Below, piece after piece: positions 4,583-22,687 of a stretch of DNA of 64,000 nucleotides. The notes beneath the pieces are model-generated. The model was not told the origin of the DNA. It was given only the letters and a program-made list of their open reading frames with translations, and did no database searches. A program made the translations under genes and the position numbers. Origin of the DNA: a virus; the IMG/VR virus record IMGVR_UViG_3300045988_101135, positions 66,762 to 130,761 of that record; one strand, 5' to 3'. Every line of letters starts with the position of its first letter. The stretch's first letter is position 1.

Positions 4583-5113
4583 ATGAGAAGGAGATTTTTT
4601 AATGCTGCGGATAATTTCGTGGGAGGATGTTATAATAAGTTATCCAATGAAGATATAAAAAGGCTTGGAGGAAAAAGACCTTATGTATGTCAGTTTAATA
4701 AAATTCATATACATATAGGACCTGTATTAAAAGATCATGATTCTGATGTTAGTTACATAATGTTTAATAGTAATTGGAATTATGGTGGTTATGAATCTAT
4801 GGTTTATAATCATAGCAATAATGGTATTTTTATATTAGGTGAAAACAAAATTGGTAACATAGAAGATCATATACAAGATCTAACATATTGGTACGAATAT
4901 GATCCAAGCATTAATGAAAATTATTGTTATTTTTATTATGAGGCTAATAACAGCGGAAATGCTATCAAGTTGAATGGTGAGTTTGGTGATACCAGTACTG
5001 TTTTCAACATTCCCAGCTTGGAAGTCACCACTCTTCGTGATGGCAGTTTGAGTTTTCCGGAGATTTATATAGAAGGAATTTGGGATCCGTCATTGTATAA
5101 GTCGGTTTTATAA
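4583..5113 (+). CDS. MRRRF-family small protein A (176 aa)
   Basis: ATG at 4583 preceded by aaggag; the track ORF starts at GTG 4574. N-terminus is MRRRFF. A C-terminal block EYDPSINENY...NG..G is shared with the ORF at 21329. Confidence 0.6.
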   Translation: MRRRFFNAADNFVGGCYNKLSNEDIKRLGGKRPYVCQFNKIHIHIGPVLKDHDSDVSYIMFNSNWNYGGYESMVYNHSNNGIFILGENKIGNIEDHIQDLTYWYEYDPSINENYCYFYYEANNSGNAIKLNGEFGDTSTVFNIPSLEVTTLRDGSLSFPEIYIEGIWDPSLYKSVL

Positions 5114-5139
5114 TTAACTTTGCAAAAAAGTTAATTACA

Positions 5140-7398
5140 ATGGGTGTCAAATGTCAGATAGAAAAAAAGGAAAATGAAATAAAACGGGTTAAGGCTCCTA
5201 ACGGGGAGCCTTCCGTTCTTTACGAAAGTGCTTTAAAAGTATTAGGAAACAGCGAGCGGGCCCTTCAGGTATGGGCTAAGGCTTACACTCCTGGTTTTTT
5301 GTCGTATTACGGTCATTGGAACAACCCGGCTCCAGGGGAGATGTTTAACACCGATCCCAATGGCGAACCTCTTTTAGAAGACGTGCTGTCGTATATGAAG
5401 CGTCAGACTTATTTTGCTGATCCTTTAACGGCTCAGGATGTTAAGGATGTAAGGGATTTCCTTTTGTCTACTCATTATTTTTTCAATGCGTCTTCATTGT
5501 CTAATGCTATTCTCTTCGATTTTTATGTAGATGGCAGTTTGATACTGAATGAGCAGAAATTAAGGAGATCCGGTTTGTATGATGAAACAGAAATAAGTCG
5601 TATTTTATCCGATCCTTCTGTTTTAAACGAGGTTTCGACTTCCATGAGAAAGTTAATAGATTCTTCTATTAACGAACATGATAGGGAAAAAGATAATTAT
5701 TTTATGTCTATTGACTATCAGTATGGTCCTATTGTTTACAAGGAGGGAGTGTTTAACCAATTTGGTAAAAAAGTACCATATAATCCTTCTGAGCTTTATT
5801 ATGCTATGCGTAAAACAGTAGCCGGCATAAAAAACTTTTCTGAATTTTCATCTGCTTTTGAATCGTTGAGAAATTCATATCCTGAACTGGTTGAGAAATT
5901 CGTTTCTGATAAAGAATTTGCCGAATCTATGTTTGATGAGTTCTCATCTACGAATAAGATTCCGGTAATAAACATAGAAGGGGATGATGTGGTGGAAGGC
6001 AAGAGAAGATCTTTGTCTAAGCTACAAGATCTTTCTTATTACAATTCCGGCAAAATAGAGTTCCTAAGAGCTCGTATATCAGCTTATTTACATAGGGCTA
6101 ATGCCGACACCGAATCCGATTTAAGAAGCATGATATGGGATATAGAAGAGGCTTGTACGTGGTTTGGCATAGATATAATAGGGACATCGGAAACTTATGA
6201 TGGCACAGAAGAATCTTTGAATAAGATAGATAATTTGATGCTGGATCTTGATATTTATGTGGCCAGGCATAATGATGTAAATTATGCTCCAGCGCTGGCA
6301 TCTTCTATAGATGATGTTCTTGGTGATAGTACAGACTATTATTTTGGATTATTGCCGGAGTATATGGATAATTTGAATATCGTTTATTCTGAATCCGATA
6401 TAGACCCAGTAGAGGCATTTGAGAAACATTCATTGCTCAAGGTAGGAGATAATCTATATCAAAGGATCAGCAAAGATGATCTTAACGAGATGTATCAAAT
6501 ATCAACAGTATTAGCCAAGCACAACCTAACTCATTTTTCTACTAAAATATATCCTGAATCTTGTTTTAAGAACGGCGTTTTGGATAAAGAGAAAGTACGG
6601 AACGTAGATAATAATACGCTCATGGCTTCCATTAAAAAATACGTCAGATCGTTCATGGATTCTCAGAACACAGAGGACATGATAATGACCAGGATGGCGT
6701 TTGGGCACCCTGCGGTACTTGACGTTCCTTACGTGGATGTGGATCGGGAGTATAGTCGATACATGAACAAAAAACAAGATAGCGAAAACCCATTATCCTT
6801 ATTCGATTTATACCAATCTTACCTTGACAACAAACTCCATAAAACAAAATTATATGATAATGCCTATAAGTATCTTGACTTCAAACCTGGTCCATCTTTG
6901 GGTCTTATTTCTGATGATCCTGATATTTTGAAATCAATAGAATTATCTTTATCTGGAAAAGACAGGTTGATGTTGTTTGATTATAGCATGACCAGTACCG
7001 ACCCTTCTTTATCAGAATTGTTTTATTTGGAGAGGTATGACCCTTCGTATGCTGGGAATGATTTTGAACACTATTTTTACACCAGGCACCCGTATTTGTT
7101 AAAAGAAAAATCGGGTTCTAATATCGTAGAGCAAGATGGTGTTATAACAGCAGAAGGTATTTATGATAATTTTATAAGAGTAGGTAATAAGATATGGTCT
7201 AAAGTAAGCGAGAGTAGTTCCGGCTCTATCTACCAAAATCTAACAGGAACCGAATCGGAGGTGAAATACGATTCTACTCAGAAGGCTAAGACGGTAGAAA
7301 CCGATTACGCTCCATACCAAAACAGATCTGGCTTGACGCAAGATATGACCGTAAGCAAGTCTGAATTGGATGATCTTAATAAATTGGAATGCAAATAA
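5140..7398 (+). CDS. hypothetical protein (752 aa)
   Basis: Long ORF co-oriented with the giant ORFs; no recognisable domain. Confidence 0.65.
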   Translation: MGVKCQIEKKENEIKRVKAPNGEPSVLYESALKVLGNSERALQVWAKAYTPGFLSYYGHWNNPAPGEMFNTDPNGEPLLEDVLSYMKRQTYFADPLTAQDVKDVRDFLLSTHYFFNASSLSNAILFDFYVDGSLILNEQKLRRSGLYDETEISRILSDPSVLNEVSTSMRKLIDSSINEHDREKDNYFMSIDYQYGPIVYKEGVFNQFGKKVPYNPSELYYAMRKTVAGIKNFSEFSSAFESLRNSYPELVEKFVSDKEFAESMFDEFSSTNKIPVINIEGDDVVEGKRRSLSKLQDLSYYNSGKIEFLRARISAYLHRANADTESDLRSMIWDIEEACTWFGIDIIGTSETYDGTEESLNKIDNLMLDLDIYVARHNDVNYAPALASSIDDVLGDSTDYYFGLLPEYMDNLNIVYSESDIDPVEAFEKHSLLKVGDNLYQRISKDDLNEMYQISTVLAKHNLTHFSTKIYPESCFKNGVLDKEKVRNVDNNTLMASIKKYVRSFMDSQNTEDMIMTRMAFGHPAVLDVPYVDVDREYSRYMNKKQDSENPLSLFDLYQSYLDNKLHKTKLYDNAYKYLDFKPGPSLGLISDDPDILKSIELSLSGKDRLMLFDYSMTSTDPSLSELFYLERYDPSYAGNDFEHYFYTRHPYLLKEKSGSNIVEQDGVITAEGIYDNFIRVGNKIWSKVSESSSGSIYQNLTGTESEVKYDSTQKAKTVETDYAPYQNRSGLTQDMTVSKSELDDLNKLECK

Positions 7399-7442
7399 TT
7401 TTTGTATATATATAATATATTTTTTCATAATTACGATTTGGG

Positions 7443-7472
7443 AAGTGAGGCTTGTGAAAGTCTCACTTTTCT
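7443..7472 (+). terminator. hairpin (7-8 bp stem aagtgagg/tctcactt) followed by ttctc
   Basis: Inverted repeat 45 nt downstream of the 752-aa ORF stop; weak T tract. Confidence 0.35.
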
Positions 7473-7987
7473 CATATATGTACGTATATCAATAACATAC
7501 AAGAAAAGTTAGATTTTCATTGTTTATGAATTATTTTTGTTAAATTTGCGATATTAGTTTCAGGAAGGGATTATAGAAATAGGAAAAAGTAAGAACCGGA
7601 CGTAACTAATAACAGTAGGAAATGAGAATCAGTACCATCAAACGTAACAACAGCATTCATATTATGTATAAAAACATTATGAATGATTTAGGTCAATTAA
7701 GAACTGTAGTTTCAAAATCCTATATTTATAATCTGATACAAAATCAAACCGGATTAAGTATCAAAACTATATCCCATGTACTTAACCATACCAAAGAATA
7801 GGATACGGATTCTTTGTGAAAAGCATATATTTTCATACATTTGTTCGTTCTTTAGTTTTAGTAGGGAAAAGTTTTTCATGGTATTTTAGTTTAGATTAGT
7901 TGAGGCAGGATTCGCAGTGATGCGGATCCTGTTTTGATTTACAGCGCTTTACCCAAAAAAGAAAAGCGAAAGTTGCTGATTATCAAT

Positions 7988-8009
7988 TTTTCCCCATAAA
8001 TGGGGAAAA
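7988..8009. promoter_or_regulatory. perfect palindrome ttttcccca-taaa-tggggaaaa in a 750-nt leader
   Basis: 9-bp perfect inverted repeat with a 4-nt loop and no flanking U-run; lies in the long non-coding stretch 7399-8153. Confidence 0.3.
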
Positions 8010-8153
8010 CTACTCGTTGTATATTATATTTCCGTTTTTACTGAAAATCCTTCCATTTTATCGGAAACAAACTCAGCCTTGTTCCACCCTGCAATCATGA
8101 TCTTTGTTACGTGCTTCATGCACGTATGTTTAACAATTAAATACTATAAAATT

Positions 8154-9161
8154 ATGGGTGGTGATAAAATCGTCCTTTTAGATGGAGCCGGGGCTAACGG
8201 TGGTGGTGCAGCCACTAACGGTCTTCTTTCAATGATTCCCGGCATGTTTGCTAATTTGATAGGTGGTAATAAAATGGATCCGAATCTGGTGGCGGCTTTG
8301 ATGAACGGTCGTAACAACCAGGACGGTTTCGGTGGGGCTAACGGTTGGTGGCTCTGGATAATTGTTTTGTTCTGGCTGTGGGGTGGACGCGGCTTCGGTA
8401 ACGGTTTTGGAAATGGCGGTGATTGTTGTGCCAATGGTTTGCCGGCTCAGTTGAATAACGATTACGGTCGTGAACTTTTGATGCAGGCAATTCAAGGTAA
8501 TCGTAGCGCCATAGATCAGATTGCTTCTGCTTTGAACTGTTCTACTACTCAACTTCAGAACGCTATCTGCAACGTACAGGGTGCTATTGATAAAGTAGCT
8601 GGTCAGGTAGGTATGACTTCTCAGGCTGTTATCAACGCAGTTCAACAACAAGGTTGTGAAATAGGAAATCAAATCAGCTCTTGCTGCTGCAATCTGAGTT
8701 CGTTGATCAATCAAAGCACTTGCCAGACTCAGGGAATGATTACTCAGCAAGGTTTTGATAACCAGCTTCGCATGTTGGAACAAACCAATGTCTTGCAGAA
8801 CGGTCTCAACCAAGGTCTGGCTAACAATCGTGAGCAAGCTACAAGCCAATTCAATATCTTGTCTGCGAAACTTGACGCCCAAACCGTTATGATCAACGAC
8901 AAATTCTGTCAGTTGGAAATGAGGGAAATGCAGAACACTATTGCTCAACTTCGTGAAGAAAAAGCGGCTTTGACAGCTTCGGCATTATCTCAGCAACAAA
9001 CCCAGAATATCGTTGGTCAATTACGCCCGACGGCCGTCCCGGCCTACCCCTCTTGTTCTCCTTACCAGGCTTATACTTGGGGACAGGTATTCGGAGGAGG
9101 TTGCTGTAATAACGGATGCGGATGTAACAACGGATGTTGCAATAACAACGCTGCTGTCTGA
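8154..9161 (+). CDS. Gly/Gln/Asn/Cys-rich low-complexity protein with one hydrophobic segment
   Basis: ATG at 8154 (track ORF starts at TTG 8079). Contains GGGAATNG, WWLWIIVLFWLWGG, Q/N-rich heptad-like stretches, and the C-terminus GGGCCNNGCGCNNGCCNNNAAV. Confidence 0.5.
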   Translation: MGGDKIVLLDGAGANGGGAATNGLLSMIPGMFANLIGGNKMDPNLVAALMNGRNNQDGFGGANGWWLWIIVLFWLWGGRGFGNGFGNGGDCCANGLPAQLNNDYGRELLMQAIQGNRSAIDQIASALNCSTTQLQNAICNVQGAIDKVAGQVGMTSQAVINAVQQQGCEIGNQISSCCCNLSSLINQSTCQTQGMITQQGFDNQLRMLEQTNVLQNGLNQGLANNREQATSQFNILSAKLDAQTVMINDKFCQLEMREMQNTIAQLREEKAALTASALSQQQTQNIVGQLRPTAVPAYPSCSPYQAYTWGQVFGGGCCNNGCGCNNGCCNNNAAV

Positions 9162-9184
9162 TTTTATTAAGAAAGGAGGCTAAT

Positions 9185-9598
9185 ATGGCTTGTGTTTCTA
9201 AAATAGGATCGTTGTATGAGATGGTTACGAAGAATGTTATTGTCAGTACGACAAATACAGTCTTCGGTATTAACCCACGGGCTTGGATCGCCCTTCCGTG
9301 TGAGGGTCTTATCCTTCTTAAGATAAGGCAAGTAGTCCCCACAGCCGGAAGTGCTCTACCGGTACAGATTGCGGTCCCGGCAAACAGCACAGTTTCAACA
9401 GTAGGAGCCGACACCTGTTGCCCGGTTACGGGAGTGAATGTCGTGAACCCTATTAACGTAGCTGTCACGGGTGCTGCTATGGTAAATGGCACAGAACGCC
9501 TTCTGTACTTCAATAAAGTTCGTGGCGTGTTAAGATTAATGGATTGTTGTGTTCCGACAACAACAGCCCAGGCGTCTGAAGTTAAAGCAGGTAAATGA
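9185..9598 (+). CDS. hypothetical protein (137 aa)
   Basis: ORF preceded by gaaaggagg (SD-like); Thr/Val-rich. Confidence 0.55.
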   Translation: MACVSKIGSLYEMVTKNVIVSTTNTVFGINPRAWIALPCEGLILLKIRQVVPTAGSALPVQIAVPANSTVSTVGADTCCPVTGVNVVNPINVAVTGAAMVNGTERLLYFNKVRGVLRLMDCCVPTTTAQASEVKAGK

Positions 9599-9605
9599 TT
9601 TCAGT

Positions 9606-9634
9606 AGGGTGATGAAGATCATCACCCTATTTTC
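9606..9634 (+). terminator. hairpin agggtgatg-aagat-catcaccct followed by atttt
   Basis: 9-bp perfect stem just after the 9598 stop. Confidence 0.35.
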
Positions 9635-9648
9635 ACCTAACTAATATT

Positions 9649-10143
9649 TTGATCATGTTTTCAGATTTGAAGAAAGGGTTTCAGGTACATACCCTTGATA
9701 CTAATACAGTACCTAAATACGAATTGGGAAAGGTAGTAGCCGTATCCGAACCCAGGTATCTTCCTCCTCAGCCAGGTCAGTATCAGGCGATGCAGACCCG
9801 CGTGGTGGATCTGACGGTAGAGCTCACTGGCGAAACCAAGACCTATACGGTCCCGGAATCCCAGAATGTGGCTAAGGCTATGGGCATAACATTATCTACC
9901 AGCATAGATCCGATTATGAACGAACTGAATGCTATAAAAAACACCAGTCAAGACATAATAAACAGCGTAGATGCCCATCGTGCCAAGATAGAGGCTTGTG
10001 AATCTATATTAGAAGACATCAATCCGGCATTCAAACAAACGAGAGAGCAGGATCGTAAAATAGCTGGTATAGAAAATAAGGTGAATGACCTTACTGATTC
10101 ATTCGAAGATTTAAAGAAGTTAATTGTAGAACGTTTGAAATAA
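9649..10143 (+). CDS. hypothetical protein (164 aa)
   Basis: ORF in the co-oriented array; C-terminal half predicted helical. Confidence 0.5.
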   Translation: MIMFSDLKKGFQVHTLDTNTVPKYELGKVVAVSEPRYLPPQPGQYQAMQTRVVDLTVELTGETKTYTVPESQNVAKAMGITLSTSIDPIMNELNAIKNTSQDIINSVDAHRAKIEACESILEDINPAFKQTREQDRKIAGIENKVNDLTDSFEDLKKLIVERLK

Positions 10144-10150
10144 GTGTAAT

Positions 10151-10519
10151 ATGATAGTATATGATTTAAATTCAGGACACAGAGAATATCCTGGATATGA
10201 CGAGATAGAAGACAGACGAGGTGGAGGCAGAGGCAGAAGCCGGCGTTCTGATGGGACGTACATGGGGTACGGTGGTGGTATTTACGACCATTACGGTATG
10301 CATGAGAAGATGAAGGAAATGGAAGAACGCGAAAACGAGCTGGAAGAAAGGGAAAGAAGGCTTGAAGAGCGCGAACGTCGTCATGAAATGGAGGACCGGG
10401 AATACCGGAGGATGGGTTACGAATCCTACCCGACCGATTACTATGGAGACGACAGATACTACGGTGACGGACCTCAGATGCGTAGAGGTCGCGGACGTGG
10501 CAGAGGTCGTTCTTATTGA
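10151..10519 (+). CDS. RG/RGG- and Glu/Arg-repeat protein (122 aa)
   Basis: GGGRGRSRR at the N-terminus, an EERENELEERERRLEERERRHE repeat, and RRGRGRGRGRSY at the C-terminus; resembles disordered nucleic-acid-binding proteins. Confidence 0.45.
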   Translation: MIVYDLNSGHREYPGYDEIEDRRGGGRGRSRRSDGTYMGYGGGIYDHYGMHEKMKEMEERENELEERERRLEERERRHEMEDREYRRMGYESYPTDYYGDDRYYGDGPQMRRGRGRGRGRSY

Positions 10520-10612
10520 GGAGCAGACGCAGAGGATCCAGCTTATCAGAAATATGTAGATACTTACGGCTACCATTTTTCTAATGCTCTCGCTGATGAG
10601 GCGGTAAAGAAG

Positions 10613-10906
10613 ATGGTCAACGTCGATGGATCCAAGAGGATCTGGAAGCAGCCGGAAATAAAAGATATTTTTGAAAAGTGCGGAGCGAAGAAGCCGGATA
10701 AAGCGACATGGGGCGATGTCCAATATGTCTTTGCAATGTACTATTCGGATGGTTTTCCGAAGGTCTTCAAATGTGAGAACGAGTTGGTGAAAGCTACGTT
10801 AATGTATTTGGATGATCCGGATGCTCCCGAAGGAGTAGCCTTTATAAGATGGCTTGCCGTGCAAGATTACCTCGGCGAAAAAATAAACTGGAAGGATCTG
10901 ACCTGA
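10613..10906 (+). CDS. hypothetical protein (97 aa)
   Basis: ORF in the array. Confidence 0.45.
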   Translation: MVNVDGSKRIWKQPEIKDIFEKCGAKKPDKATWGDVQYVFAMYYSDGFPKVFKCENELVKATLMYLDDPDAPEGVAFIRWLAVQDYLGEKINWKDLT

Positions 10907-11270
10907 GATCCAGATCCAGGTCCTTCCGGTGGTGCGGGAGCCATAGTAAAAAATATGATTCCCGCATTCCCGTTTTTCCCGTTTGGAAAAAAAGGAATAA
11001 AAATATTATACCGGTCGGCGGGCAATAGAATACCCGTGGCCGGTTTGTTTCACATAACTTTTTTTGGGATATGAATATAGCACACGAATCTAAATCGAAT
11101 AAAACCCCATTGTATTTAATAGGAGAGTTGATTGGCGTACCGAATACGGTTATGGACTCAGCATTGCATGAACTGAAAGATAGAATAGACAAAGACCCTA
11201 AATATAAAGATGTTAAAAATTGGCTCGAATCTTTACCCAAGATCTGAACCTATTTTTTTTCAATACCAGG

Positions 11271-11305
11271 CCCGATGCGATTTTAACGTATCGGGTTTTT
11301 ATTTT
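11271..11305 (+). terminator. hairpin cccgat-13nt-atcggg followed by tttttatttt
   Basis: 6-bp GC-rich stem plus T tract in the intergenic region 10907-11375. Confidence 0.4.
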
Positions 11306-11375
11306 AATTCATATTGTTTTATTTTAAATCTAATTAATTCATGAATGTCGTACTTTTGTTGAAAAAGTATTCTAT

Positions 11376-11603
11376 ATGGAAAATAAGGAAGATTACGTTG
11401 GTTACGAGGATCAAGAACTGTGTAACCGGTATTACAAAGAGGCTGAAGCCATGAGGCAAAAGCAGGACTGGTCTCGGCTTAGGGCTGTCCCTGCTCCGGC
11501 CAAGGGAACGCCATCGCCCGGCTGGGGTCAGCTTGGACGTGGAAATGATGTCCGTGTTAAGTATGTTAGCATCAATTCAGGATTAGGAGGAGATAGGTTA
11601 TGA
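11376..11603 (+). CDS. hypothetical small protein (75 aa)
   Basis: ORF overlapping the next ORF by 4 nt (ATGA-type coupling). Confidence 0.35.
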   Translation: MENKEDYVGYEDQELCNRYYKEAEAMRQKQDWSRLRAVPAPAKGTPSPGWGQLGRGNDVRVKYVSINSGLGGDRL

Positions 11604-11815
11604 CTGTAGAAGAATTGGCTAATAAAAGATACGGTGGCGAATTTGTTTTCATGTTTGGTCATCTTGAAGGTAGAACAAGATTCGTTTTTGAATGCTTTGA
11701 TCCCAGACCTGATCACGAAGGTAAAAACACTTATATGGTTTCCTATTTTGATAAGGGACTTCGTAGAAGAGATGTGGTAGATGTGCCGTGTTATATGAAT
11801 ATTTTGCCAAAATAA
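11600..11815 (+). CDS. hypothetical small protein (71 aa)
   Basis: Translationally coupled small ORF. Confidence 0.35.
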   Translation: MTVEELANKRYGGEFVFMFGHLEGRTRFVFECFDPRPDHEGKNTYMVSYFDKGLRRRDVVDVPCYMNILPK

Positions 11816-12018
11816 TGGAAACATTAATCTTAGATGTACCTGTATTTTCCGGTAAGATTATTTCTCCTATCTGGATTAAAGCCGTAAGAGATTTTCAATC
11901 CAAATCGAAGACAGAAAGAGACTCGTATTGTTTGATTTGTGGATGTACAGGAGGGTGTAACTTGTGCGATGATATAAGTAAATATAGGATTTCAGAACAA
12001 TTAAAATATTACAAATAA
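11788..12018 (+). CDS. hypothetical Cys-containing small protein (76 aa)
   Basis: ORF with CLICGCTGGCNLC. Confidence 0.35.
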   Translation: MLYEYFAKIMETLILDVPVFSGKIISPIWIKAVRDFQSKSKTERDSYCLICGCTGGCNLCDDISKYRISEQLKYYK

Positions 12019-12749
12019 TGGAATTAAAAGATTCAGTCAGGGTAATGACTAAAGAAGAGTTCGAATCAGCAATCAACGAAGATATTAAATTCGTTGAAGG
12101 AATTAAGCATTTTTTTAAACATGATGATGCTACGAGGGTAATGGAACACGTAAAGTCCGTGTTAGAGGCATCAGTAGACTACCACTACCCGAATCATCCT
12201 GAACCTGAAGCAGAACCTGGAGACATGGGAGAGGTTTCTGATGGATACCATACTTTCAATGAATTGTATCGGTACCGCATGTTGTATAATGCCGCCTTCT
12301 TTAATCTATTAGCCAGAAACGGACAGGTTGAAGTTTGCAAATCAAGGAGACACAGCGATGGAGAAAAATGCTTCGGTTCTGATGATTGGTTTATTGTGAT
12401 GGCGATCCTACCTACCGGTCAGGTATCTAATCACTATGAAAGCAAATACTGGGATTTGTTTGATGTTCCTGAAAGAGAAACCGCTTTCGAATACGATGGC
12501 CATACACCAAATGAAGCCTCCGACAGACTTGAAAAGTATCTCAAACTGCCTCGTCATGGCATGACATTCGAACAGGCTTTAGAACGGCTTAAATTAGGTC
12601 GTAAGATAAAAAGAATCGATTGGGGTAAAAAGTATATCTGTATGTTTGACGTAAATATATTGATGATAGATACAGGTCAAAAAGTAGCATCAAATTGGAA
12701 TCCAACCGAACATGATATTATGTCTAATGACTGGGAGATTGCGGGATGA
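12018..12749 (+). CDS. protein with C-terminal DUF2829 (Tad2-like) domain
   Basis: The last ~60 aa read MTFEQALERLKLGRKIKRIDWGKKY...NWNPTEHDIMSNDWEI. This matches the F-x-EAL-x2-LK-x-G-KK-V-R-x-x-W ... D-W-E signature of the DUF2829/Tad2 family. The N-terminal 180 aa are unassigned. Confidence 0.5.
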   Translation: MELKDSVRVMTKEEFESAINEDIKFVEGIKHFFKHDDATRVMEHVKSVLEASVDYHYPNHPEPEAEPGDMGEVSDGYHTFNELYRYRMLYNAAFFNLLARNGQVEVCKSRRHSDGEKCFGSDDWFIVMAILPTGQVSNHYESKYWDLFDVPERETAFEYDGHTPNEASDRLEKYLKLPRHGMTFEQALERLKLGRKIKRIDWGKKYICMFDVNILMIDTGQKVASNWNPTEHDIMSNDWEIAG

Positions 12750-13021
12750 GTTTGTTTGTTTGTTCAAAATGTGGCTGTATAGATAATACAGCCACATCCT
12801 GTTATTGGGCTCTTATAAGACCTTGTAAGAATCGTATTTACGATAAGTCGCTAAAGGGATATGAAGGCAAGCCTCTTTGTTCTGAATGTGCCGCTATTGA
12901 ATATAGTAAGGGAGACGAAGTGGTGGTAGTTCCTGGAACGTGGCATGGTAAGTTCAAGAAAGAATGGCCTACTGAAGAAGAGAAGAAGCATATTGGTAAA
13001 AACGGTATTTTAAATATGTAA
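12746..13021 (+). CDS. Cys-rich zinc-ribbon-like small protein (91 aa)
   Basis: CSKCGC...C...C...CSEC pattern. Confidence 0.4.
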   Translation: MSLFVCSKCGCIDNTATSCYWALIRPCKNRIYDKSLKGYEGKPLCSECAAIEYSKGDEVVVVPGTWHGKFKKEWPTEEEKKHIGKNGILNM

Positions 13022-13024
13022 ATT

Positions 13025-13330
13025 ATGTGTGATAAGGAAATTGTTGTATGCGCAGCTATATGGGTTCAAGATCACAAGAACAAGCCTCACGGTCCAGTAA
13101 ACATACCATCCGGAACCGTATTTTGTGGATTGAGACATTGTTCTATCATTTCTCAGTTTGCAGCTTATGGTATTGCTCATAAAAACCGCAGTGTTCAAGG
13201 ATTTTTGACAAGCAAGAATCGGTTTCTAACAAGAGAGGAGGCATCTGCTCTTGTTAAGAGCAATAATCAGGAAATGGTAGTAGATAGGAGTGCCATTAGA
13301 GAACAATTGTATTCAGAAGATCTATATTAA
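13025..13330 (+). CDS. hypothetical protein (101 aa)
   Basis: ORF; contains conserved-looking VFCGLRH and GFLTSKNRFLTREEA motifs of unknown family. Confidence 0.45.
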   Translation: MCDKEIVVCAAIWVQDHKNKPHGPVNIPSGTVFCGLRHCSIISQFAAYGIAHKNRSVQGFLTSKNRFLTREEASALVKSNNQEMVVDRSAIREQLYSEDLY

Positions 13331-13347
13331 CTAAAAAACAAAACAAC

Positions 13348-14212: not shown

Positions 14213-14225
14213 ATATATTTGTGGC

Positions 14226-14549
14226 ATGGCAAGAGGTTATTATTGGATACCACAAACAGATGAAACGTTAAATGGCAGAAGCTATTACGTGGCTAAGATA
14301 GTAGGAGATATCACGTTTGATACTAAACGAAAAAGAATCGTATTTCAAGCTGATAGGTATTTCCCTGTAGGATCTGTTTTCCATTTTACGCACAATTGCT
14401 TCAATTATATCATAACTTGCCGACTTCGTAAGCCGGGGCTTTGGTTTGAAGCCAGGAGAGAGGATTCGGGCCCTATTTGCCCTGAAGATATTGAGCGCTT
14501 TGAATCGGGAAGGTTTATACACCGAGATGGGTACATGCATTACATATAA
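14226..14549 (+). CDS. hypothetical protein (107 aa; start moved to the second Met)
   Basis: The track ORF starts at 14196 inside the terminator hairpin; ATG at 14226 (MARGYYW) is the more plausible start. Confidence 0.4.
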   Translation: MARGYYWIPQTDETLNGRSYYVAKIVGDITFDTKRKRIVFQADRYFPVGSVFHFTHNCFNYIITCRLRKPGLWFEARREDSGPICPEDIERFESGRFIHRDGYMHYI

Positions 14550-14602
14550 GCTGAACTTGACGATTTTTCGTCAGATTATAATTTTTTTTTCATATTATTT
14601 TT

Positions 14603-14640
14603 AAGCCATCAGACTGAGAAGTTAGGTGGCTTTATTTTTT
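14603..14640 (+). terminator. hairpin aagccatc-14nt-ggtggctt + tatttttt
   Basis: 8-bp stem (one G-U pair) followed by a T tract, 50 nt upstream of the 2140-aa ORF. Confidence 0.55.
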
Positions 14641-14692
14641 ATGATATGCTTTATTTTTAACTACCTTTGTCTCATAACAAAAATGTTTTATC

Positions 14693-17600
14693 ATGGTATC
14701 AACGTGTATTATTAAAAGAGATAATAAAAAGAAAGTTGTTTCTGTCTCTACCAGATCAGGGGACAGGTCTATGTTGTTTGATAAGATAGCATCTATTCCT
14801 CTTATGGAGAACAGGGAACGGGCTACTACTGTTTTTAAAACCGTATTTTCTAATAAGTTCTTAAAGGATTTTGGCGACTGGAGAAAGAGAGTGCCTATCA
14901 ACAAACCGGCTTATAATAAGGTTAAATCCAACATTGATCTTATTCCGGAAGCTTATAGAGAAAGGGTACTGGATAAGGCTTCTAAGATGAGCAACCCTAT
15001 TCTTGTGTCAAAATCAGATGCACCTTATGGAATCCGAGAATCGGGCTTTGGATTCTACAGCCAAGATCTGGGTGATAATATTATGTTGGTGGATGCTATG
15101 GTTCCGTCAAGTATTTCCGTACCGGAAGGACCTGGAATAGACGCCGGGCAGTATTTACAAGATGCTATATCTTCGGACTTCACTCCCGTATCTATGGTAC
15201 AGGATAAGGGTGTTAATTATATGGTTATAAAAGACGGTCTTAAGATATTTAGCCCAGAAGAGTTACCACAGACAGATTCTAATCCTGTGGGTGTAACGTA
15301 TCATACTGGAGAGCCTCGTTTGTTTTTCATGAACGATCGTAGTCAATTATTTGAAGATTACGGAGAAGCTCTTCGCTCTGGAGGGAATGATATTAGAATA
15401 GGATTCTTATCCGGCACCGTTCAAGAATCTGCCGTGGATGGCGTGGCAGACATTACTTACAAGGCTGGAAAGTATGTTCTTAATAATCCCAAGTCTTTTA
15501 TACCGGTCATGACCGCTTCTGCTTCTACTTCTTTATCAACAAAAGGTGGTATAATTAACTACCTTATAAAGAAAGGTCTTTTGTCCGGATCCAAGATATT
15601 CGATCCGGAAACAAGAAGCTATTATATTACAGGAGAAGGACATACAGGACAAATTAGACTTTTCAATTCAGCCTTATCCTACACTGAGCTCCGTAATCAT
15701 TTTGGTTCCGATGTTTCCATGAACGACCAGGGTATGATAACCATAAATTCATTGGATAATAGTAAGGTAACTATGAGACTCGCCACCGGAGGAACAGAAA
15801 GAGTTAGCAAGGAGCAGATAAAGAGCGATCTTAAGTCTGGAAGATACAATGAATTGGATGCTAAATACGATCACTTTGATGCGCTTGTAGTTTCATTTAT
15901 ATTAGAAGACAATGATCTTTATGCTGATACTAAAGCTAAGATAGTATCGGATTATAGCCAAGAGGAACGTAATCAACGAAATTCTATTGTTGAGATACTG
16001 AAAACGCTGGGCGTTAGTGTCGTTGGCATGACCGATTATATAGAGAAGTACCAAACCAAATACGGGCACGAACCTTCTGCTAAGGCATTGGCGGATATTG
16101 CCAATAACGTAATAGCAGTTGGTGAAGATGCTACTTTATCTGATTTAGTAGAAGAAACAGCCCACTTCCTTGTAGAGGCATACAGAGATCAGAATGCTGT
16201 TGAGGCTGTTCTGCAAGATGTGGAAGGTACGGAAGAGTGGAACCAATATGCAGGTCAGTATTATAATACATACGGTAAAGTATATGAAGGCTCTGAACTT
16301 GATAATGCTGTTAGGAGAGAAATTCTTGGAAAGATCCTCGCCAGGGAGATGCAGACCGGCACAGCACAGGCGCCGGTAGAGCCCACCTCCTTCCTGGGGC
16401 GCGTCCGGCAGCTTTTCTCTGGAATCGTAAGCTGGCTTAAATCAGCTTTATCAACTCAAAGACAAGATTTGAATAACGTTATTAAAAACATTCGTGATCT
16501 TGCCATTACTGACATAGATAAAGGATTTGACACCTCTCTGTTAAAGGATAATGACTTTACATTATACTCCCTTTCTTCTATGAACAAGAACAAGTTTCTT
16601 GAGTCTAAGATCCTGGCATTAAGGAAAACATTAAGAGACTTACGTCAGATAAGCTCTGATAGGGCTGTAACTACGTCTATGACCCTTGCTCAGCTTAAGA
16701 CCATAGAAGATAAGATAAATAAGGTAGAGACCGAAATAGACAAGAATGAGATGGCGGCTGCCATGAACAGCATGATCTCTACAGCCGAAGCTCAGGTCAG
16801 ATACTTAAGCAATGTGGTGAACACCATCCTTCATGGTGATACCAAAGACGGTAAGCTTCACTTCAATACCAATGATCGAAAGAACGTAGATATTATCAAC
16901 AATCAGGTTCTTCCGATCATGAACGATCTTCGAGGATATATCCGTAACAGAAGTACCGAATTTGATGAACGTGAAAAGCAGGATTATACAAATAGGATCA
17001 ATACCGTCATTGCCGACATCAATGGTATTCAGTCTGATATTAAATCAGTACAAGACCTTGATGAAAGTACGTTGCTTGATAAGTTAATGAACGAACTTCA
17101 TGTGCCGGCAGATAAGGTAAAGAGAGTAAAAGAATTTTTCGACAAGGTTCAACACGATGTTTCTTGGATAAGTAGGTGGTTCGGTATATTAGAGCATTCT
17201 TCCAGTCCGTTCAATAACGCTCTTGGAGCTATGATTGCCAAAGACAATTACAATGCGATGGTGAATGCCCAGCCCGCCATATCCGATTTCCTGGCATATG
17301 CGAAAAAGCATGGTTTTAACAAATCTGAATTTGAAAAACTGCTTCAGAAAGTAGACGGCAAAACTTCTAATTACCTTCGTAGTGCTCTTGATATGGCTAA
17401 ATACGATCGTAATAAGAAGCTGGCGCAGATGCGAGCGTTTGCGACTGCCATGAACATAGAGATATCAGAAGAAGAAATTGGTGATGTGGTTGACAATAAC
17501 CGTAATTACGTATTTAAAAGAGAAGTAGTTGACAAGGATGGAAATACGGTTACTGAAAACGCTAAATTCAAACCATCGTCTGATAGGGTTAATACCGATA

Positions 17601-20600
17601 TTTTTACCATCGAGCAGGAAAAGATCTATACAGAGCAGATGGAAAAGTGGGATGCTGAAAATTCGGAACTGGAATTTAGCGAAAGTTATGCCACAAGAAT
17701 GGAATCCATATACAAAAAGGCTGAAGAAGAATTAGGGTATCCGGTTTCTCAAACAACCAAAGAATATCTTAATGCCCTATCCCGGCAAAAACGGATATTG
17801 AGGCAGCCTTTTATTGATAGCGGTGGTAATTTTGATGAGGTTGCCTATTTTAAAAGCAGCAATTACGAAGAAGAAGGACTGCTTCGTAAACAACGTAAGG
17901 AAGCAGCTTCAGAATACATATATGTAGGAACCAGGAGAGTGGAAAAAACCGGCGACCAACTTAAGATGGCCAAAGAAATACAAGCTATAAATGAAGTTTG
18001 GAGAAAGGAATCAAATAATGCCACTAATGCCGTATCAGAATCGTTTTTGCAAAAATTAAGAACGATTCAGAGCGAGTCTGGAGGAGAAGCTGCGCTGAAG
18101 ACACTTATGTTGGGAGGTCACCTGTCATTCAACGATCGGTTTTGGAATGATGTAGAATCAGAACAGTCGGCACGTACCGAATCAAATAACAAGGCTTCGT
18201 ATCTTAAAATGGCGCATGATATCATTAGTTCTACGACAAGTGATAGAGATGCGACTGACGTGGATTCTATTGTGAAAGATATAGAAAAAAATAAGGCTAT
18301 TATCAAGGAAATAATCGGAAACAATCGCGATGTGGCTGATATCGGAGAAATTAACGAAGCGACATTTACCTCATCCGAAAGAGATGCTTTTAGGGCCGCA
18401 TCTGAAGCTATTGAAGCCGATTACGCTATTTTGATAGATTATGCTAAGATGGTGGGTCTTGAAGATATTGATAAGTACCTTACTAAAAGCAGTAAGGCTG
18501 AAAACGAAGTAAATCAGTCTTATTTAAATGCTCTTGCTGACTCCAAGGAAGTGGAATGGAAGTTCGTACAACGTCATACTACGGCGAAGAAAGCAAAAAG
18601 GATTCAGGCTTTAAGGGATAAGCTGTTTAAGGCTGCTGATAACCGATATCTGTTTACCGTATCTGAAACCAACTACCTGTCAGAAAAGCTTGGTATAAGC
18701 AAAGAATTAGACGGTAGAGATTTCAGGAATGCTGTTAATGCTAAGATGGCCAGCTTATTTTTAAATAATACAAGAGAAGAGGGCGTAGAAGAAGCTAATG
18801 CTATTGTTAATGAATTTGCCAGAAGCCAGGTTTTTTCGTACTATAAACGCATGGCGCCTACCGGATATGCAGCTATGATCGACAAAATCGGTCGAGGTGA
18901 GATAGATGTGGCGCAAATGGTTAAGGACGTACAAAACGGTACATCCACCCAAGATTATGGCATGGACATATCGTACTTGTCTTTCGACCCTGCAAGGGCA
19001 TGGGTGGCTGAATCTGAAGCCGAAAATAGCGGTCGTAATCCTGATTATGTAAAAGATCATGGGTATGGTCATCGAATGCCTAAGAAAAGCCTGTATCGTG
19101 ACGAATCGTATTTCAATGACTTTGGTATCAAGTATGATGCTGACGGTAATGAGGTTGCTACTAAAAACGTAGAGCAGTGGAATATGATTCAAAAACTCAA
19201 GGAAATAAAAAGACAATCCCTTGATCTATACAAAGAGCAGAGCCCGAACCTGTATGCTATTCCACAGATATCCAAACAAGATATAGAACGTGTAGAAGGA
19301 TTGGGTATTAACTTCAAAAATACGGTTCGTAATTTTGTATCAGATCTGTGCCTGGACAGAGTAGACGATTCTCTATATGGTAAGACCAGGCAAGGAGAAG
19401 TGTATGATCCAGAAGACAGGCTTAGGTCTATACCTAAATACTACATATATGAATTGGAGAACCAAGATGATGTATCTCACGATTTTGGCTACTCTTATTC
19501 GATGCTTATGATGCAATCATCGTTATACAACGAAAAGCAGAAGTCTATAGAGCTTGCCCAAGGACTGGAGCAGATGTTACTAAATAAACAATTTGAAGGT
19601 GGTAAAAAGGCTGAAGCAACCCAAGCATATCAGATGTTCAGGGACTTCTTCAACGATCATTATTATGGCATTAGGATGAACACCAAAAAACTTACGGTGA
19701 ACATCGGAGGATATACGGTAGACCTTACAAGAATTATGATGGCTGTTGAAAGATTTATGTCGGTTATGAACTTGGCACTGTCTCCGTTTGTGGCAGCTAC
19801 CGGCGCCCTGACAGGCCATATCAACCTCATCATGGAATCAGCCGTAGGACAGTATATAAGCAAAGATTCCCTTAAATACGCATCGGCTGAGTTTTCCCGT
19901 CTTGCGCCATCTTGTATAGCAGAAACCGGAGACATAGATAGGAAAAGCAAATTATATGTCATAGGTGAGAGAATGGGGATATTCAATATCCGAAATCGTA
20001 TGTATGGTGCCGGATACAATAGAGCGGCCAGGACCTTAATGCGTTCGCCTATGTATGCTTTTATGGAAATCCTGAACTACCCTCTTGATCCGCAGGTTAT
20101 GATTGCTACTATGGACAATGTTCGTTATTACAAAGGCCGGTTCTACACGTTCCAAGATTTCAAGATGGAAAAAGAACGCAATAAAGAACAGAGTACCATA
20201 AAAAGAGAATGGAACGCATTAAAAGATCGTACTTTATGGAGTATGGTAGACGTCGTGGATGGAAAGGTGGTTGTAAAGCCGGGATCGGGTGTTACTGTTG
20301 AGGAAGTTGAAACCCAGATGGCTATAACCAGGAATCAAGTCCGTAGCTTGTCGCAGATATGTAACGGATCTTTGAATGAAGAAAACCGAACTGCCGCATC
20401 GCGCAACTGGATAGCCAGGTTCATGACCGCCCACCGAGGATGGTTGGTGCTGGCGGCTCAACGTCTGTGGAAAAGACGTGGCTTCAATTTCCAGACAATG
20501 CAAGAAGAGGAAGGGTTGTCAATTACGTTAAAGAATATGATAGCCAAAACATTTAGCTTAGCTTCCGAGTCTGGTATGAAAAACATCATAGATGCCTGGA

Positions 20601-21115
20601 ACGAAAATAAAGACAATATGAATGAGGTAGAGAAAACCAATATAAAACGTCTCAGTGTCTATGCCGGCACGTTCCTTATCATGCAAGCCGTATCCATGCT
20701 TCTTGCCGGATGGCGTGATGATGATGAAAACGAAGAAAGTTGGCTTACTCAATTTGGATCCTATGTCGGATTCAGAACCATAAACGAAATAGCTTCACAG
20801 ATGCCGTTTATTATGGAGCTTAACGTGGTAGATATCATTAACGATCCGTTTGTTATGGGGCGAAAACTGAAGGATCTTACCGATCTTAGGAATTATTCAC
20901 TTGATAAAGTAACATCCGGTACATACAAGGGAGAGTCTAAGTTATTTAGGCAACTCGCCAAACAGACGTTTATCAAACAATGGTATAATATCAAGACGCC
21001 GGAAGACGTAGCGCGTGCCTATAACTGGTGGCAGCAGACGAACAACAAGTCAATGATGTTTTTCATCGGTGCCACTCCTGATTCAGAAGGAGACGATGAT
21101 GTGAGCTACAAGTAG
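14693..21115 (+). CDS. giant hypothetical protein (2140 aa)
   Basis: 6.4-kb uninterrupted ORF bracketed by terminators. No DxDGD, Walker or other catalytic motif recognised by eye. An alternative start at 14771 (MLFDK) is possible. Confidence 0.8.
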   Translation: MVSTCIIKRDNKKKVVSVSTRSGDRSMLFDKIASIPLMENRERATTVFKTVFSNKFLKDFGDWRKRVPINKPAYNKVKSNIDLIPEAYRERVLDKASKMSNPILVSKSDAPYGIRESGFGFYSQDLGDNIMLVDAMVPSSISVPEGPGIDAGQYLQDAISSDFTPVSMVQDKGVNYMVIKDGLKIFSPEELPQTDSNPVGVTYHTGEPRLFFMNDRSQLFEDYGEALRSGGNDIRIGFLSGTVQESAVDGVADITYKAGKYVLNNPKSFIPVMTASASTSLSTKGGIINYLIKKGLLSGSKIFDPETRSYYITGEGHTGQIRLFNSALSYTELRNHFGSDVSMNDQGMITINSLDNSKVTMRLATGGTERVSKEQIKSDLKSGRYNELDAKYDHFDALVVSFILEDNDLYADTKAKIVSDYSQEERNQRNSIVEILKTLGVSVVGMTDYIEKYQTKYGHEPSAKALADIANNVIAVGEDATLSDLVEETAHFLVEAYRDQNAVEAVLQDVEGTEEWNQYAGQYYNTYGKVYEGSELDNAVRREILGKILAREMQTGTAQAPVEPTSFLGRVRQLFSGIVSWLKSALSTQRQDLNNVIKNIRDLAITDIDKGFDTSLLKDNDFTLYSLSSMNKNKFLESKILALRKTLRDLRQISSDRAVTTSMTLAQLKTIEDKINKVETEIDKNEMAAAMNSMISTAEAQVRYLSNVVNTILHGDTKDGKLHFNTNDRKNVDIINNQVLPIMNDLRGYIRNRSTEFDEREKQDYTNRINTVIADINGIQSDIKSVQDLDESTLLDKLMNELHVPADKVKRVKEFFDKVQHDVSWISRWFGILEHSSSPFNNALGAMIAKDNYNAMVNAQPAISDFLAYAKKHGFNKSEFEKLLQKVDGKTSNYLRSALDMAKYDRNKKLAQMRAFATAMNIEISEEEIGDVVDNNRNYVFKREVVDKDGNTVTENAKFKPSSDRVNTDIFTIEQEKIYTEQMEKWDAENSELEFSESYATRMESIYKKAEEELGYPVSQTTKEYLNALSRQKRILRQPFIDSGGNFDEVAYFKSSNYEEEGLLRKQRKEAASEYIYVGTRRVEKTGDQLKMAKEIQAINEVWRKESNNATNAVSESFLQKLRTIQSESGGEAALKTLMLGGHLSFNDRFWNDVESEQSARTESNNKASYLKMAHDIISSTTSDRDATDVDSIVKDIEKNKAIIKEIIGNNRDVADIGEINEATFTSSERDAFRAASEAIEADYAILIDYAKMVGLEDIDKYLTKSSKAENEVNQSYLNALADSKEVEWKFVQRHTTAKKAKRIQALRDKLFKAADNRYLFTVSETNYLSEKLGISKELDGRDFRNAVNAKMASLFLNNTREEGVEEANAIVNEFARSQVFSYYKRMAPTGYAAMIDKIGRGEIDVAQMVKDVQNGTSTQDYGMDISYLSFDPARAWVAESEAENSGRNPDYVKDHGYGHRMPKKSLYRDESYFNDFGIKYDADGNEVATKNVEQWNMIQKLKEIKRQSLDLYKEQSPNLYAIPQISKQDIERVEGLGINFKNTVRNFVSDLCLDRVDDSLYGKTRQGEVYDPEDRLRSIPKYYIYELENQDDVSHDFGYSYSMLMMQSSLYNEKQKSIELAQGLEQMLLNKQFEGGKKAEATQAYQMFRDFFNDHYYGIRMNTKKLTVNIGGYTVDLTRIMMAVERFMSVMNLALSPFVAATGALTGHINLIMESAVGQYISKDSLKYASAEFSRLAPSCIAETGDIDRKSKLYVIGERMGIFNIRNRMYGAGYNRAARTLMRSPMYAFMEILNYPLDPQVMIATMDNVRYYKGRFYTFQDFKMEKERNKEQSTIKREWNALKDRTLWSMVDVVDGKVVVKPGSGVTVEEVETQMAITRNQVRSLSQICNGSLNEENRTAASRNWIARFMTAHRGWLVLAAQRLWKRRGFNFQTMQEEEGLSITLKNMIAKTFSLASESGMKNIIDAWNENKDNMNEVEKTNIKRLSVYAGTFLIMQAVSMLLAGWRDDDENEESWLTQFGSYVGFRTINEIASQMPFIMELNVVDIINDPFVMGRKLKDLTDLRNYSLDKVTSGTYKGESKLFRQLAKQTFIKQWYNIKTPEDVARAYNWWQQTNNKSMMFFIGATPDSEGDDDVSYK

Positions 21116-21251
21116 ACGAAGAATATCGGACTTGCATTGTTTTTGTATGATTCCAATATGTTATATTAGTATCGTCAAAGAGTAGATTGTACGTTTTTTG
21201 TTCTTACTTGAAAGATTATGTAGGTTAAATTTTTTCTGAAATTGTTTTCTT

Positions 21252-21293
21252 ACCGGTTCTCAGTCAGAGATGATAGGGAACCGGTTTCTTTTA
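21252..21293 (+). terminator. hairpin accggttc-18nt-gaaccggt + ttctttt
   Basis: Perfect 8-bp stem and T tract 137 nt after the giant ORF stop. Confidence 0.5.
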
Positions 21294-21328
21294 TGTTGTC
21301 AATTATTGCTATCTTGCAAACAAAAATC

Positions 21329-21742
21329 ATGAGACGAAGATTTCAAATAGGGATGGGGGTAAATCCCTCGCTTATAATCAATAAAGGCATATACATCCAA
21401 CATGTAGATGGAGGATTATATACAAAAGAAAATTGGTCTAATAAAGGATATTCCAATGATCTATGCAATGGAATAGCTCTTGTAGATAAAGTGTGTTTTG
21501 TTATAGCCACCGAATATATTGGCACATTTAGTTGGGGTAAGGATGGAAGAGTAGACAATGTATTTGCACAAAATAGTTCTTATATGGAGACCGTTAAAAA
21601 GGATTATTGGGGGCGTGAAAATCAGAATGCGTATCTTGAATATGATACCAGTAATGAAAATTACGCTTTTAATAAAGCTAATAGCTATTTATTTAAAAAT
21701 GGTCAAAATGGATATGTAGGTGGCGCCGGAGAGTTTTTTTGA
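21329..21742 (+). CDS. MRRRF-family small protein B (137 aa)
   Basis: ATG at 21329 (MRRRFQ); the track ORF starts inside the terminator. C-terminal block LEYDTSNENYAFNKAN...NGQNGYVGGAGEFF is paralogous to protein A at 4583. Confidence 0.55.
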   Translation: MRRRFQIGMGVNPSLIINKGIYIQHVDGGLYTKENWSNKGYSNDLCNGIALVDKVCFVIATEYIGTFSWGKDGRVDNVFAQNSSYMETVKKDYWGRENQNAYLEYDTSNENYAFNKANSYLFKNGQNGYVGGAGEFF

Positions 21743-21945
21743 TATCATTGTATGCGAATGAAATAAACGAATGCCTTTTAATGGTAGGAGGTACGATAAT
21801 GAGTAATAAAATGTGGACATCCACTCAATCTACACAATTTACCTATTCGTGGTATTATGATATAAACATCCAAGGAGATCATTTGGATACAAGTACAAGG
21901 AGTAATCCACGTTATGTCCGCCCCTTTACCGAATTAATTTTATGA
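21739..21945 (+). CDS. hypothetical small protein (68 aa)
   Basis: Small ORF bridging two MRRRF genes. Confidence 0.3.
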   Translation: MISLYANEINECLLMVGGTIMSNKMWTSTQSTQFTYSWYYDINIQGDHLDTSTRSNPRYVRPFTELIL

Positions 21946-21949
21946 AATT

Positions 21950-22687
21950 ATGAGAAGAAGATTTGAAAATAATGCTAAACTATATGAGTATAAGATAGTT
22001 AGCAATTGTATAGGGGGGAGGGTAATCGTAGAAGGAAAGAAAGTAGGCACCATTCCACAGGGCGGGCAATTTATCTTTCTGTCTAAAAAAGAACGGCTGG
22101 ATTCCATAAGTGTCCAAGGCGGTGTTCCAATGGAAGATAGGCAAGAGATCGATAGTCAGGTTGATACGACAGAGGAATTGCTTGAACAGGATTCGGTGGT
22201 TCTTGCTATTGCTTTAACAACCTCTCCTTATTATGGATTTAGAGTAAGTGTGATAGCACCTGATGAGTTTACGCTAAGAACAACCAATAGGATTAATAGA
22301 ACCTTTTTAATAACAAGCTTTACTCCACCTGCTGCTATATACGGTGTAAACTTTGGTGATCCTATTGTCCTTAATTATGATAGTTACCAATATGAGATGC
22401 CAGATCTTGTAATTGATGGACCTCATGATAGAATAGTTAGGGCAGATCCTAATCTTACTTGGGTTGTAAGATGTACAGACGCCGACTTTAAACCTTTGCC
22501 ATATCCAGAATCATGGTCTGGCCAAGGTTTAAATTCTATGTTCTTATCAGATATGAAACGTCTTGCTCCTGGTGATCATCATGTATCATATACAGCTTAT
22601 ATTAATTTGGACTTGATAAATGATGGCGGAAGTAAAGTTCATACTGAATATCTGATATTAGAAGAAACACTTAATTTTACGATATGA
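21950..22687 (+). CDS. MRRRF-family protein C (245 aa)
   Basis: Starts MRRRFEN; last gene of the plus-strand block. Confidence 0.55.
   Translation: MRRRFENNAKLYEYKIVSNCIGGRVIVEGKKVGTIPQGGQFIFLSKKERLDSISVQGGVPMEDRQEIDSQVDTTEELLEQDSVVLAIALTTSPYYGFRVSVIAPDEFTLRTTNRINRTFLITSFTPPAAIYGVNFGDPIVLNYDSYQYEMPDLVIDGPHDRIVRADPNLTWVVRCTDADFKPLPYPESWSGQGLNSMFLSDMKRLAPGDHHVSYTAYINLDLINDGGSKVHTEYLILEETLNFTI

Follow-up and report, generated by a model that had tools for sequence, protein, structure and literature searches.

Short conserved N-terminal tags on modular phage proteins are known in principle from several systems. The capsid-targeting sequence of the T4 internal proteins is about 10 residues long, is not arginine-rich, and is cut off by the prohead protease, which recognizes a conserved L/I-x-E site. 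In the tailspikes of phages K1-5, K1E, and SP6, conserved N-terminal peptides of 7 and 11 residues bind the adaptor gp37, and the KP34-like peptide reads MALxxLV (PMC6872550); a binding study of such docking peptides on secondary receptor-binding proteins (RBPs) is also available (PMC13352976). Within the crassviruses, the tail fiber gp22 of PhicrAss001 docks into the THA/THB hub via its N-terminal residues 1-26 (PMC10172136). Here we describe a basic tag, M-R-R-R-[F/Y], that heads several genes in a 64,000-nucleotide stretch of viral DNA (IMG/VR record IMGVR_UViG_3300045988_101135, positions 66,762 to 130,761; hereafter the window) and in its relatives. As judged by sequence comparison, this head is the same short peptide on otherwise unrelated virion-module proteins of one phage group.

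The headed genes resemble those of the K1-5, K1E, SP6, and KP34 peptides in that a very short conserved extreme N-terminus is found on unrelated, horizontally exchanged proteins of the virion gene block within one phage group. They also resemble branched RBP systems, as several such proteins are encoded per genome and their genes lie at synteny breaks. The head differs from the tailspike peptides in being basic (RRR) and only 4-5 residues long, and docking is read here from the genes. Unlike the proteins of branched RBP systems, which are trimeric beta-helix tailspikes or depolymerases, the bodies are small immunoglobulin (Ig)-like, weakly lectin-like, or glycine-rich proteins, and the phage is a crassvirus of Bacteroidota rather than a T7- or SP6-like coliphage. 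PhicrAss001 belongs to the same viral order, and in its gp22 an N-terminal segment alone attaches a tail appendage to the tail barrel. However, gp22 starts MFFTQEDYRK and is a single conserved fiber of 832 amino acids (aa), whereas the headed proteins form a set of swappable small proteins.

Occurrence and conservation of the MRRR head

Three MRRRF strings occur in the six reading frames of the window, with no further MRRR, and all three lie at the starts of ATG-initiated open reading frames (ORFs) on the plus strand (genes A, B, and C; Table 1), the three starts that a sequence-only reading of the window had noticed. Their frequency is not random: the expectation from composition is 0.05 MRRRF over the six frames and 0.0004 genes with an M-RRRF start. 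For positions 4000-24000 of the window, the match is phage crAssE-Sib (OR575929), whose 151-kb genome comes from the human gut and which Babkin et al. 2024 described as an epsilon crAss-like phage (PMC11054128); identity is 95.7% across 91% of the query. A six-frame scan of crAssE-Sib finds MRRR five times, each time as a plus-strand ORF start in the structural gene block, and a sixth gene has the variant start MSRRRYF. Searching related genomes for such N-termini, as the sequence-only reading had proposed, locates them at gene starts throughout: in crAssE-Sib and ≈240 related loci (80 related contigs surveyed for each of three loci), every MRRR opens a gene of the structural gene block. These genes occupy three variable loci, one upstream of the muzzle gene and one behind each of giant ORFs 1 and 2. 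The window covers the distal end of this block on its plus strand (1-22.7 kb); past 22.7 kb, minus-strand genes with replication functions follow.

Gene A starts 2 nucleotides (nt) past the stop of giant ORF 1, gene B starts 213 nt past the stop of giant ORF 2, and gene C comes next after B. The earlier description of these genes as trailing each giant ORF therefore fits the window but fails as a rule, since headed genes form their largest array upstream of the muzzle gene and more distant relatives present other neighborhoods. In L165, a headed PEGA-type gene sits between a ring-protein gene and the genes for a BACON tail protein and the muzzle; in L167, the headed gene adjoins ring-protein genes and a TnpB element; and in L250, a 753-aa headed BACON protein is encoded after tail-fiber-like genes. 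Because the headed genes of these distant relatives adjoin ring-protein or tail-fiber-like genes, trailing a giant ORF is a local circumstance of the window. A tblastn search of GenBank phages with a distant headed protein returned no match.

The head is conserved as a peptide. Its RRRF codons are AGA AGG AGA TTT in A, AGA CGA AGA TTT in B, AGA AGA AGA TTT in C, AGG CGT CGT TTC in a glycine-rich headed protein, and AGA CGC AGG TTT in a distant relative, and because the Arg codons differ in this way between copies, selection on the head is evidently at the peptide level. Across ≈178 intact headed genes, the sole replacement is R2K, in 5, and the residues that follow vary (positions 5-8 read FFNA, FQIG, FENN, YEDV, FLIK, or FEYK). 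Searching 1.84 billion cluster representatives with C yielded 40 relatives, and those with the N-terminal domain only begin MRRRYEN, MRRRFEI, MRRRLYN, MRRRFMN, MRRRSST, MRRSTYS, MSLLRRRM, or MKRRFYQ. In a 31-sequence alignment reaching down to 22% identity, M1, R2, R3, and R4 are near-invariant, conserved like the core residues of the domain. Internal copies of this PEGA-like domain in P0147, P0153, P0155, P0156, and P0159 have no preceding RRR, and in P0147 and P0159 the head is present on the N-terminal domain copy. Because internal copies of the same domain lack the RRR, the motif belongs to the N-terminus and not to the fold. The proposal that small proteins of the virion gene block, though otherwise diverged, share a conserved N-terminal tag has thus held up, with selection acting on the protein.

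These data also bear on the idea that the head is the n-region of an export signal (Sec, lipoprotein, or Tat) or a translational element, whether a purine-rich start context or a regulatory nascent peptide, both of which we regard as highly improbable. MRRRF does resemble a signal-peptide n-region, RRxF is twin-arginine-like, and MRRRFLIK resembles RRxFLK. No hydrophobic h-region of ≈10 or more residues follows, however: over 10-residue stretches, the highest Kyte-Doolittle mean lies between −0.1 and 1.3 for nine types and reaches 1.9 for the tenth, compared with 3.3 for a genuine signal peptide that this phage encodes, and the signal-peptide and Tat reading was rejected on this hydropathy. 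A conserved translation-initiation context, which the sequence-only reading had offered as an option, would draw on the Shine-Dalgarno-like AGAAGGAGA. The glycine-rich copy, with AGG CGT CGT, leaves no common RNA motif, and the upstream DNA is not common to the loci; the initiation or RNA-motif reading was rejected on this diversity of codons and upstream sequence.

A literature search on "MRRRF" returned nothing relevant, and the protein-analysis section of the crAssE-Sib genome paper (PMC11054128) does not mention the headed genes. To our knowledge, the motif, its basic character, its minimal length, the phage order in which it occurs, the range of its bodies, and its link to hypermutable tracts are undescribed.

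Unrelated bodies and cassette exchange

Although A, B, and C had been introduced as a paralog family, comparison of their sequences indicates that the headed proteins are not one in the usual sense, because nothing beyond the head relates the bodies to one another. The head is carried by at least eight types of body without detectable mutual similarity, among them Ig-like/PEGA-like, weakly lectin-like, glycine-rich, and DUF5977 plus BACON bodies as well as orphans. The C-terminal block EYD-S-NENY that A and B were thought to share was rejected: BLASTP aligns the two at E=0.26 in a different register, in a Smith-Waterman comparison, the bodies reach only z=1.5 and 23 of 300 shuffles score as high, and profile-profile alignment with hhalign joins only the 6-residue head. 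A remote link between A and B may run through a 218-aa MRRRFEFD protein of related genomes, which beats shuffles against both A (z=4.2) and B (z=6.1). Once the heads are stripped off, body types score above shuffles in just three pairings: the 149-aa with the 153-aa type, B with the 218-aa type, and, weakly, A with the latter. C and an MRRRYED type have their N-terminal domain in common.

The body of C is predicted to be a chain of PEGA-like/Ig-like beta-sandwich domains of the adhesin type. AlphaFold2 was uninformative from the single sequence (predicted local distance difference test, pLDDT, 35); with the 31-sequence alignment, it models an all-beta chain at a mean pLDDT of 92, with values below 50 confined to the head (residues 1-6). 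Large proteins bearing Pfam PEGA and BACON contain further copies of the N-terminal domain of C; in P0153-P0159, the C-matching stretches overlap or adjoin Pfam PEGA matches, and those proteins also have BACON. Residues ≈182-230 match SprB and CarboxypepD_reg repeats. A Foldseek search of C against BFVD recovered its own homolog only. For B, Pfam Lcl_C (PF07603) scores E=0.81 (10.4 bits), and for the 218-aa MRRRFEFD protein E=0.017 (15.9 bits), both below the 34.9-bit cut-off. Homologs of A are found in this phage group only, and several other bodies are likewise orphans of the group. Pfam and PHROGs searches with A, B, C, and their crAssE-Sib counterparts gave nothing significant, and PDB sequence searches with A, B, and C gave no match.

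The bodies are exchanged as cassettes in three slots. The slot after giant ORF 1 (80 loci) holds the A type, an unrelated 192-aa MRRRYED type, both in either order, or truncated copies, and it is empty in 4 of 80. After giant ORF 2, B is accompanied by the 245-aa C type or by an unrelated 149-aa MRRRFEN type; ten of the 80 loci have nothing there and 2 more retain head-mutated B remnants only, such that 12 of 80 are without an MRRRF gene. The array upstream of the muzzle gene is the largest, with up to five headed ORFs. Next to these slots, the C-terminal 399 aa of giant ORF 1 and the C-terminal 400 aa of giant ORF 2 are 95-100% and 99-100% conserved across the 80 loci, respectively, while the slot downstream of the former is variable and the B/C locus downstream of the latter varies or is missing. 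Neither giant ORF has a Pfam or PDB sequence match.

Several junctions fall at or within the head codons. The A and MRRRYED types share their upstream DNA and exactly the first 12 nt, ATGAGAAGGAGA, and diverge thereafter; in tandem arrangements, ≈35 nt of the upstream sequence are repeated. L025 and L031 have lost B via a crossover inside the head that leaves the B-type codons ATGAGACGAAGATTT fused to the C or 149-aa body, and chimeric proteins, including B/C and B/149, are common. Such junctions would be expected of a functionless head, left over as the 5' end of one recipient gene to which new bodies join downstream of a working start, with the shared 12-15 nt providing microhomology for further shuffling. 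We nevertheless consider this explanation unlikely. The head survives synonymous change at up to 6 of its 12 nucleotides (AGG CGT CGT TTC versus AGA AGA AGA TTT), it is kept with other codons at 22-35% body identity (ATGAGACGCAGGTTT and ATGAGAAGACGTCTA), and the upstream regions of the three loci are unrelated. Neutrality would also leave the near-invariance of R2-R4 beside freely varying positions 5-8 unexplained.

The neighborhood of the slots has several further features. TnpB (IS605 OrfB-type) elements lie in or beside headed-gene arrays in crAssE-Sib (L003:14017-15413) and in L167 (10001-12383). The MRRRFENV gene of crAssE-Sib has 32 codons, compared with 169 aa in relatives, and a TnpB gene starts ≈75 nt downstream. 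Immediately 3' of the A slot lies a conserved 752-aa ORF (window 5140-7398) with no Pfam or PHROG match. Between both giant ORFs, positions 7400-14700 hold ≈20 small genes, labeled repressor, antirepressor, DNA-binding, DUF2829, and the like in crAssE-Sib, and they form a non-structural island within the structural gene block. Giant ORF 2 is a single ORF in the window, whereas OR575929 has two overlapping coding sequences of 281 and 1885 aa at 103085-109487, which suggests a frameshift or sequencing error in either sequence.

Table 1. Features of the headed-gene loci. Positions are those of the window; types of the array upstream of the muzzle gene come from related genomes.
Feature	Position	Strand	Description
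Giant ORF 1	9..4580	+	Start lost at window edge; at least 1523 aa; crAssE-Sib counterpart 2208 aa, annotated "structural protein"
Gene A	4583..5113	+	MRRRFF head (4583-4597) and orphan body, 176 aa; variable slot right after giant ORF 1
Giant ORF 2	14693..21115	+	2140 aa
Gene B	21329..21945	+	MRRRFQ head; 205 aa; weak Lcl_C/DUF1566-like signal; split here into ORFs 21329-21742 and 21739-21945
G5 homopolymer, gene B codons 9-11	21355..21359	+	Second length-variable tract
T7 homopolymer, gene B	21734..21740	+	Frameshift site in window; OFF or truncated state
Gene C	21950..22687	+	MRRRFE head (21950-21964), PEGA-like beta domain (~residues 11-60), further Ig-like beta-sandwich domains (predicted); 245 aa
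Interrupted poly-G (G6 A G3), gene C codons 22-24	22013..22022	+	In-frame interrupted allele; relatives G8-G10
Muzzle-upstream array, MSRRRYFE type			153-157 aa
Muzzle-upstream array, MRRRFL type			Glycine-rich headed protein; Pfam Gly_rich_2, 5e-18
Muzzle-upstream array, MRRRFENV type			169 aa
Muzzle-upstream array, MRRRFEFD type			218 aa
Muzzle-upstream array, MRRRFLYD type			772 aa, one genome; three DUF5977 repeats and BACON domains

Length-variable homopolymer tracts in genes B and C

The product of gene B is not a protein of 137 aa: the ORF of that length is the first part of a longer gene broken by a T7 run. The crAssE-Sib homolog is one continuous 205-aa ORF, and the gene is split in the window because T7 instead of T8 shifts the frame. 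Among 49 loci, this tract is T8 in 39 (crAssE-Sib included), T9 in 5, and T7 in 5, so that 10 of 49 vary. The G5 tract differs in 13 of 57 loci (G4, G6, G8, or G9), and truncated or chimeric forms are numerous among the homologs of B. P0161, the B cluster with the most members (3360), starts MQKKNEKKISNRGG... from an upstream ATG; it reads the head region in a different frame and regains that of the body at the poly-G tract (compare window 21300-21360). Because P0161 reads the head region in another frame, many phages would make B without the MRRRF head, if B is made at all.

The poly-G tract of gene C varies in a similar manner. Twelve loci have G10, the in-frame length, 13 have G9, and 5 have G8; several further alleles are interrupted yet keep the frame. 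Thirteen of 120 protein clusters are "MYRGG..." or "MYVNN..." calls without the head, of which the 10 MYRGG calls would fit a frameshift at this tract. Control tracts of 6-7 bases in a giant ORF, in gene C, and in minus-strand genes have no length variant in 11 of 12 cases, and the remaining one (26899) has 1 variant of 12. Loci that are otherwise identical over ≈880 nt differ in tract length.

On this evidence, variation at the B and C tracts looks like contingency-type (phase-variable) switching. The data are assembled contigs, and fixed decay or assembly noise at G9-G10 may be an alternative source of the variation. Sorensen et al. reportedly described hypermutable poly-G tracts in receptor-binding protein genes of Campylobacter phages (Cell Reports, 2021). 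As in those genes, the tracts here lie in virion-module genes, vary between near-identical genomes, and toggle the reading frame. Unlike in the Campylobacter phages, the evidence comes from assembled metagenomic contigs only, and T tracts vary as well as G tracts.

Polymorphic tracts also occur at or just before gene starts. In relatives, T tracts vary before giant ORF 2 (T9, 14582-14590; T7-T10), at or just inside the start of ORF 14196-14549 (T8, 14205-14212), and at 21194-21199 (T6); they may affect promoter spacing or may simply be unconstrained. In crAssE-Sib, a G11 tract (L003:13256-13266; record ≈63256) precedes the start codon of the glycine-rich MRRRFL gene by ≈20 nt and is G9-G11 in the few related loci that could be anchored.

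A candidate docking peptide for accessory adhesins

Our best reading, which we hold tentatively, is that M-R-R-R-[F/Y], a short and flexible N-terminus, serves as a docking peptide by which exchangeable accessory adhesins join the epsilon-crAss virion. The peptide would attach a changing set of small accessory adhesin-type proteins to one common virion site, probably on the tail. The bodies would be exchanged, duplicated, or deleted by recombination in the three hypervariable slots, sometimes inside the head codons, and individual headed genes would be turned on and off by homopolymer slippage. Several observations point in this direction. The head is strictly N-terminal, conserved at the peptide level, shared by unrelated bodies, and, in the model of C, disordered ahead of a confident beta fold, and the K1-5, K1E, SP6, and KP34-like peptides and gp22 of PhicrAss001 offer precedents. 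The body types (PEGA/BACON relatives, SprB/CarboxypepD_reg repeats, Gly_rich_2, and three DUF5977 repeats with BACON) are typical of exposed phage and bacterial adhesins, and the headed genes lie between ring-protein, BACON tail-protein, and muzzle genes or after tail-fiber-like genes. The proteins would then be located in the virion, with the head binding one of its components. The targeting signal envisaged by the sequence-only reading survives in part: a targeting or attachment role is the best reading, whereas co-ejection fits less well given that the body folds resemble external adhesins rather than internal proteins.

A packaging or ejection signal would give the head a different task, namely to direct small polymorphic proteins into the capsid or the tail cargo space, in the manner of T4, for delivery with giant cargo proteins. 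Like the T4 internal proteins, the headed proteins combine a short conserved N-terminal tag with unrelated bodies, and their genes are small, polymorphic, and dispensable. Both headed loci of the window directly follow giant ORFs, and these giants match by position the RNA polymerase-associated cargo proteins of PhicrAss001 (PMC10172136). A basic tag could also bind DNA or an acidic tail, and giant ORF 2 ends ...PDSEGDDDVSYK. Despite these parallels, we judge a packaging signal to be decidedly unlikely. The Ig-like/PEGA, BACON, weakly lectin-like, and glycine-rich bodies have folds typical of exposed adhesins, and the largest headed array lies upstream of the muzzle gene, not behind a cargo gene. 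Unlike the T4 sequence, the head is followed by no conserved cleavage motif (positions 5-7 read FFN, FQI, FEN, YED, or FLI), and the crAssE-Sib annotation (OR575929) includes no prohead protease, although no search aimed at one was made.

Several points weigh against a docking peptide as well. The presence of the headed proteins in the virion is read from their genes, and the literature consulted holds no proteome or structure of an epsilon crAss-like phage. The head falls below the length of any documented docking peptide (7-11 residues). Unlike in branched RBP systems, no T4gp10-like branching or anchor domain was found by Pfam in ten tail-region proteins of crAssE-Sib and the window, which gave BACON only, although profiles may miss a divergent domain. 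No MRRR head is present in positions 10000-59999 of PhicrAss001, the 50 kb that include its virion-module region, where the string MKRRYSS is internal to gp46; the precedent from this phage is thus by analogy only. The headed genes are dispensable: 12 of 80 genomes carry no MRRRF gene behind giant ORF 2, and frameshifts affect many copies, which also fits decaying genes without a virion role. Finally, several bodies (the A, 149-aa, 169-aa, and MSRRRY types) have no recognizable fold.

A bolder form of the docking-peptide reading, which we find doubtful, is a plug-and-play display. The MRRR-F/Y head would be a universal basic N-terminal plug that fits a common virion socket, with unrelated adhesin modules shuffled at the plug codons and switched by homopolymer slippage. 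One phage lineage could then give rise to particles with stochastic combinations of adhesins, a contingency-locus system beside the diversity-generating retroelement of the phage.

Crassviruses count among the commonest viruses in the human gut, and their host recognition and persistence are poorly known; we know of no epsilon-group crAss-like phage in culture. A tag that turned out to serve packaging rather than docking would be the first packaging signal in Crassvirales. The cassette swaps, head-codon deletions, and hypermutable tracts would mark three hot spots of strain-level variation, of use for strain tracking and for following phage-host coevolution in metagenomes. If the docking reading is correct, the headed genes would constitute a defined candidate set of host- or mucus-interaction factors in these phages, and their tag suggests a minimal handle for displaying foreign proteins on crass particles.

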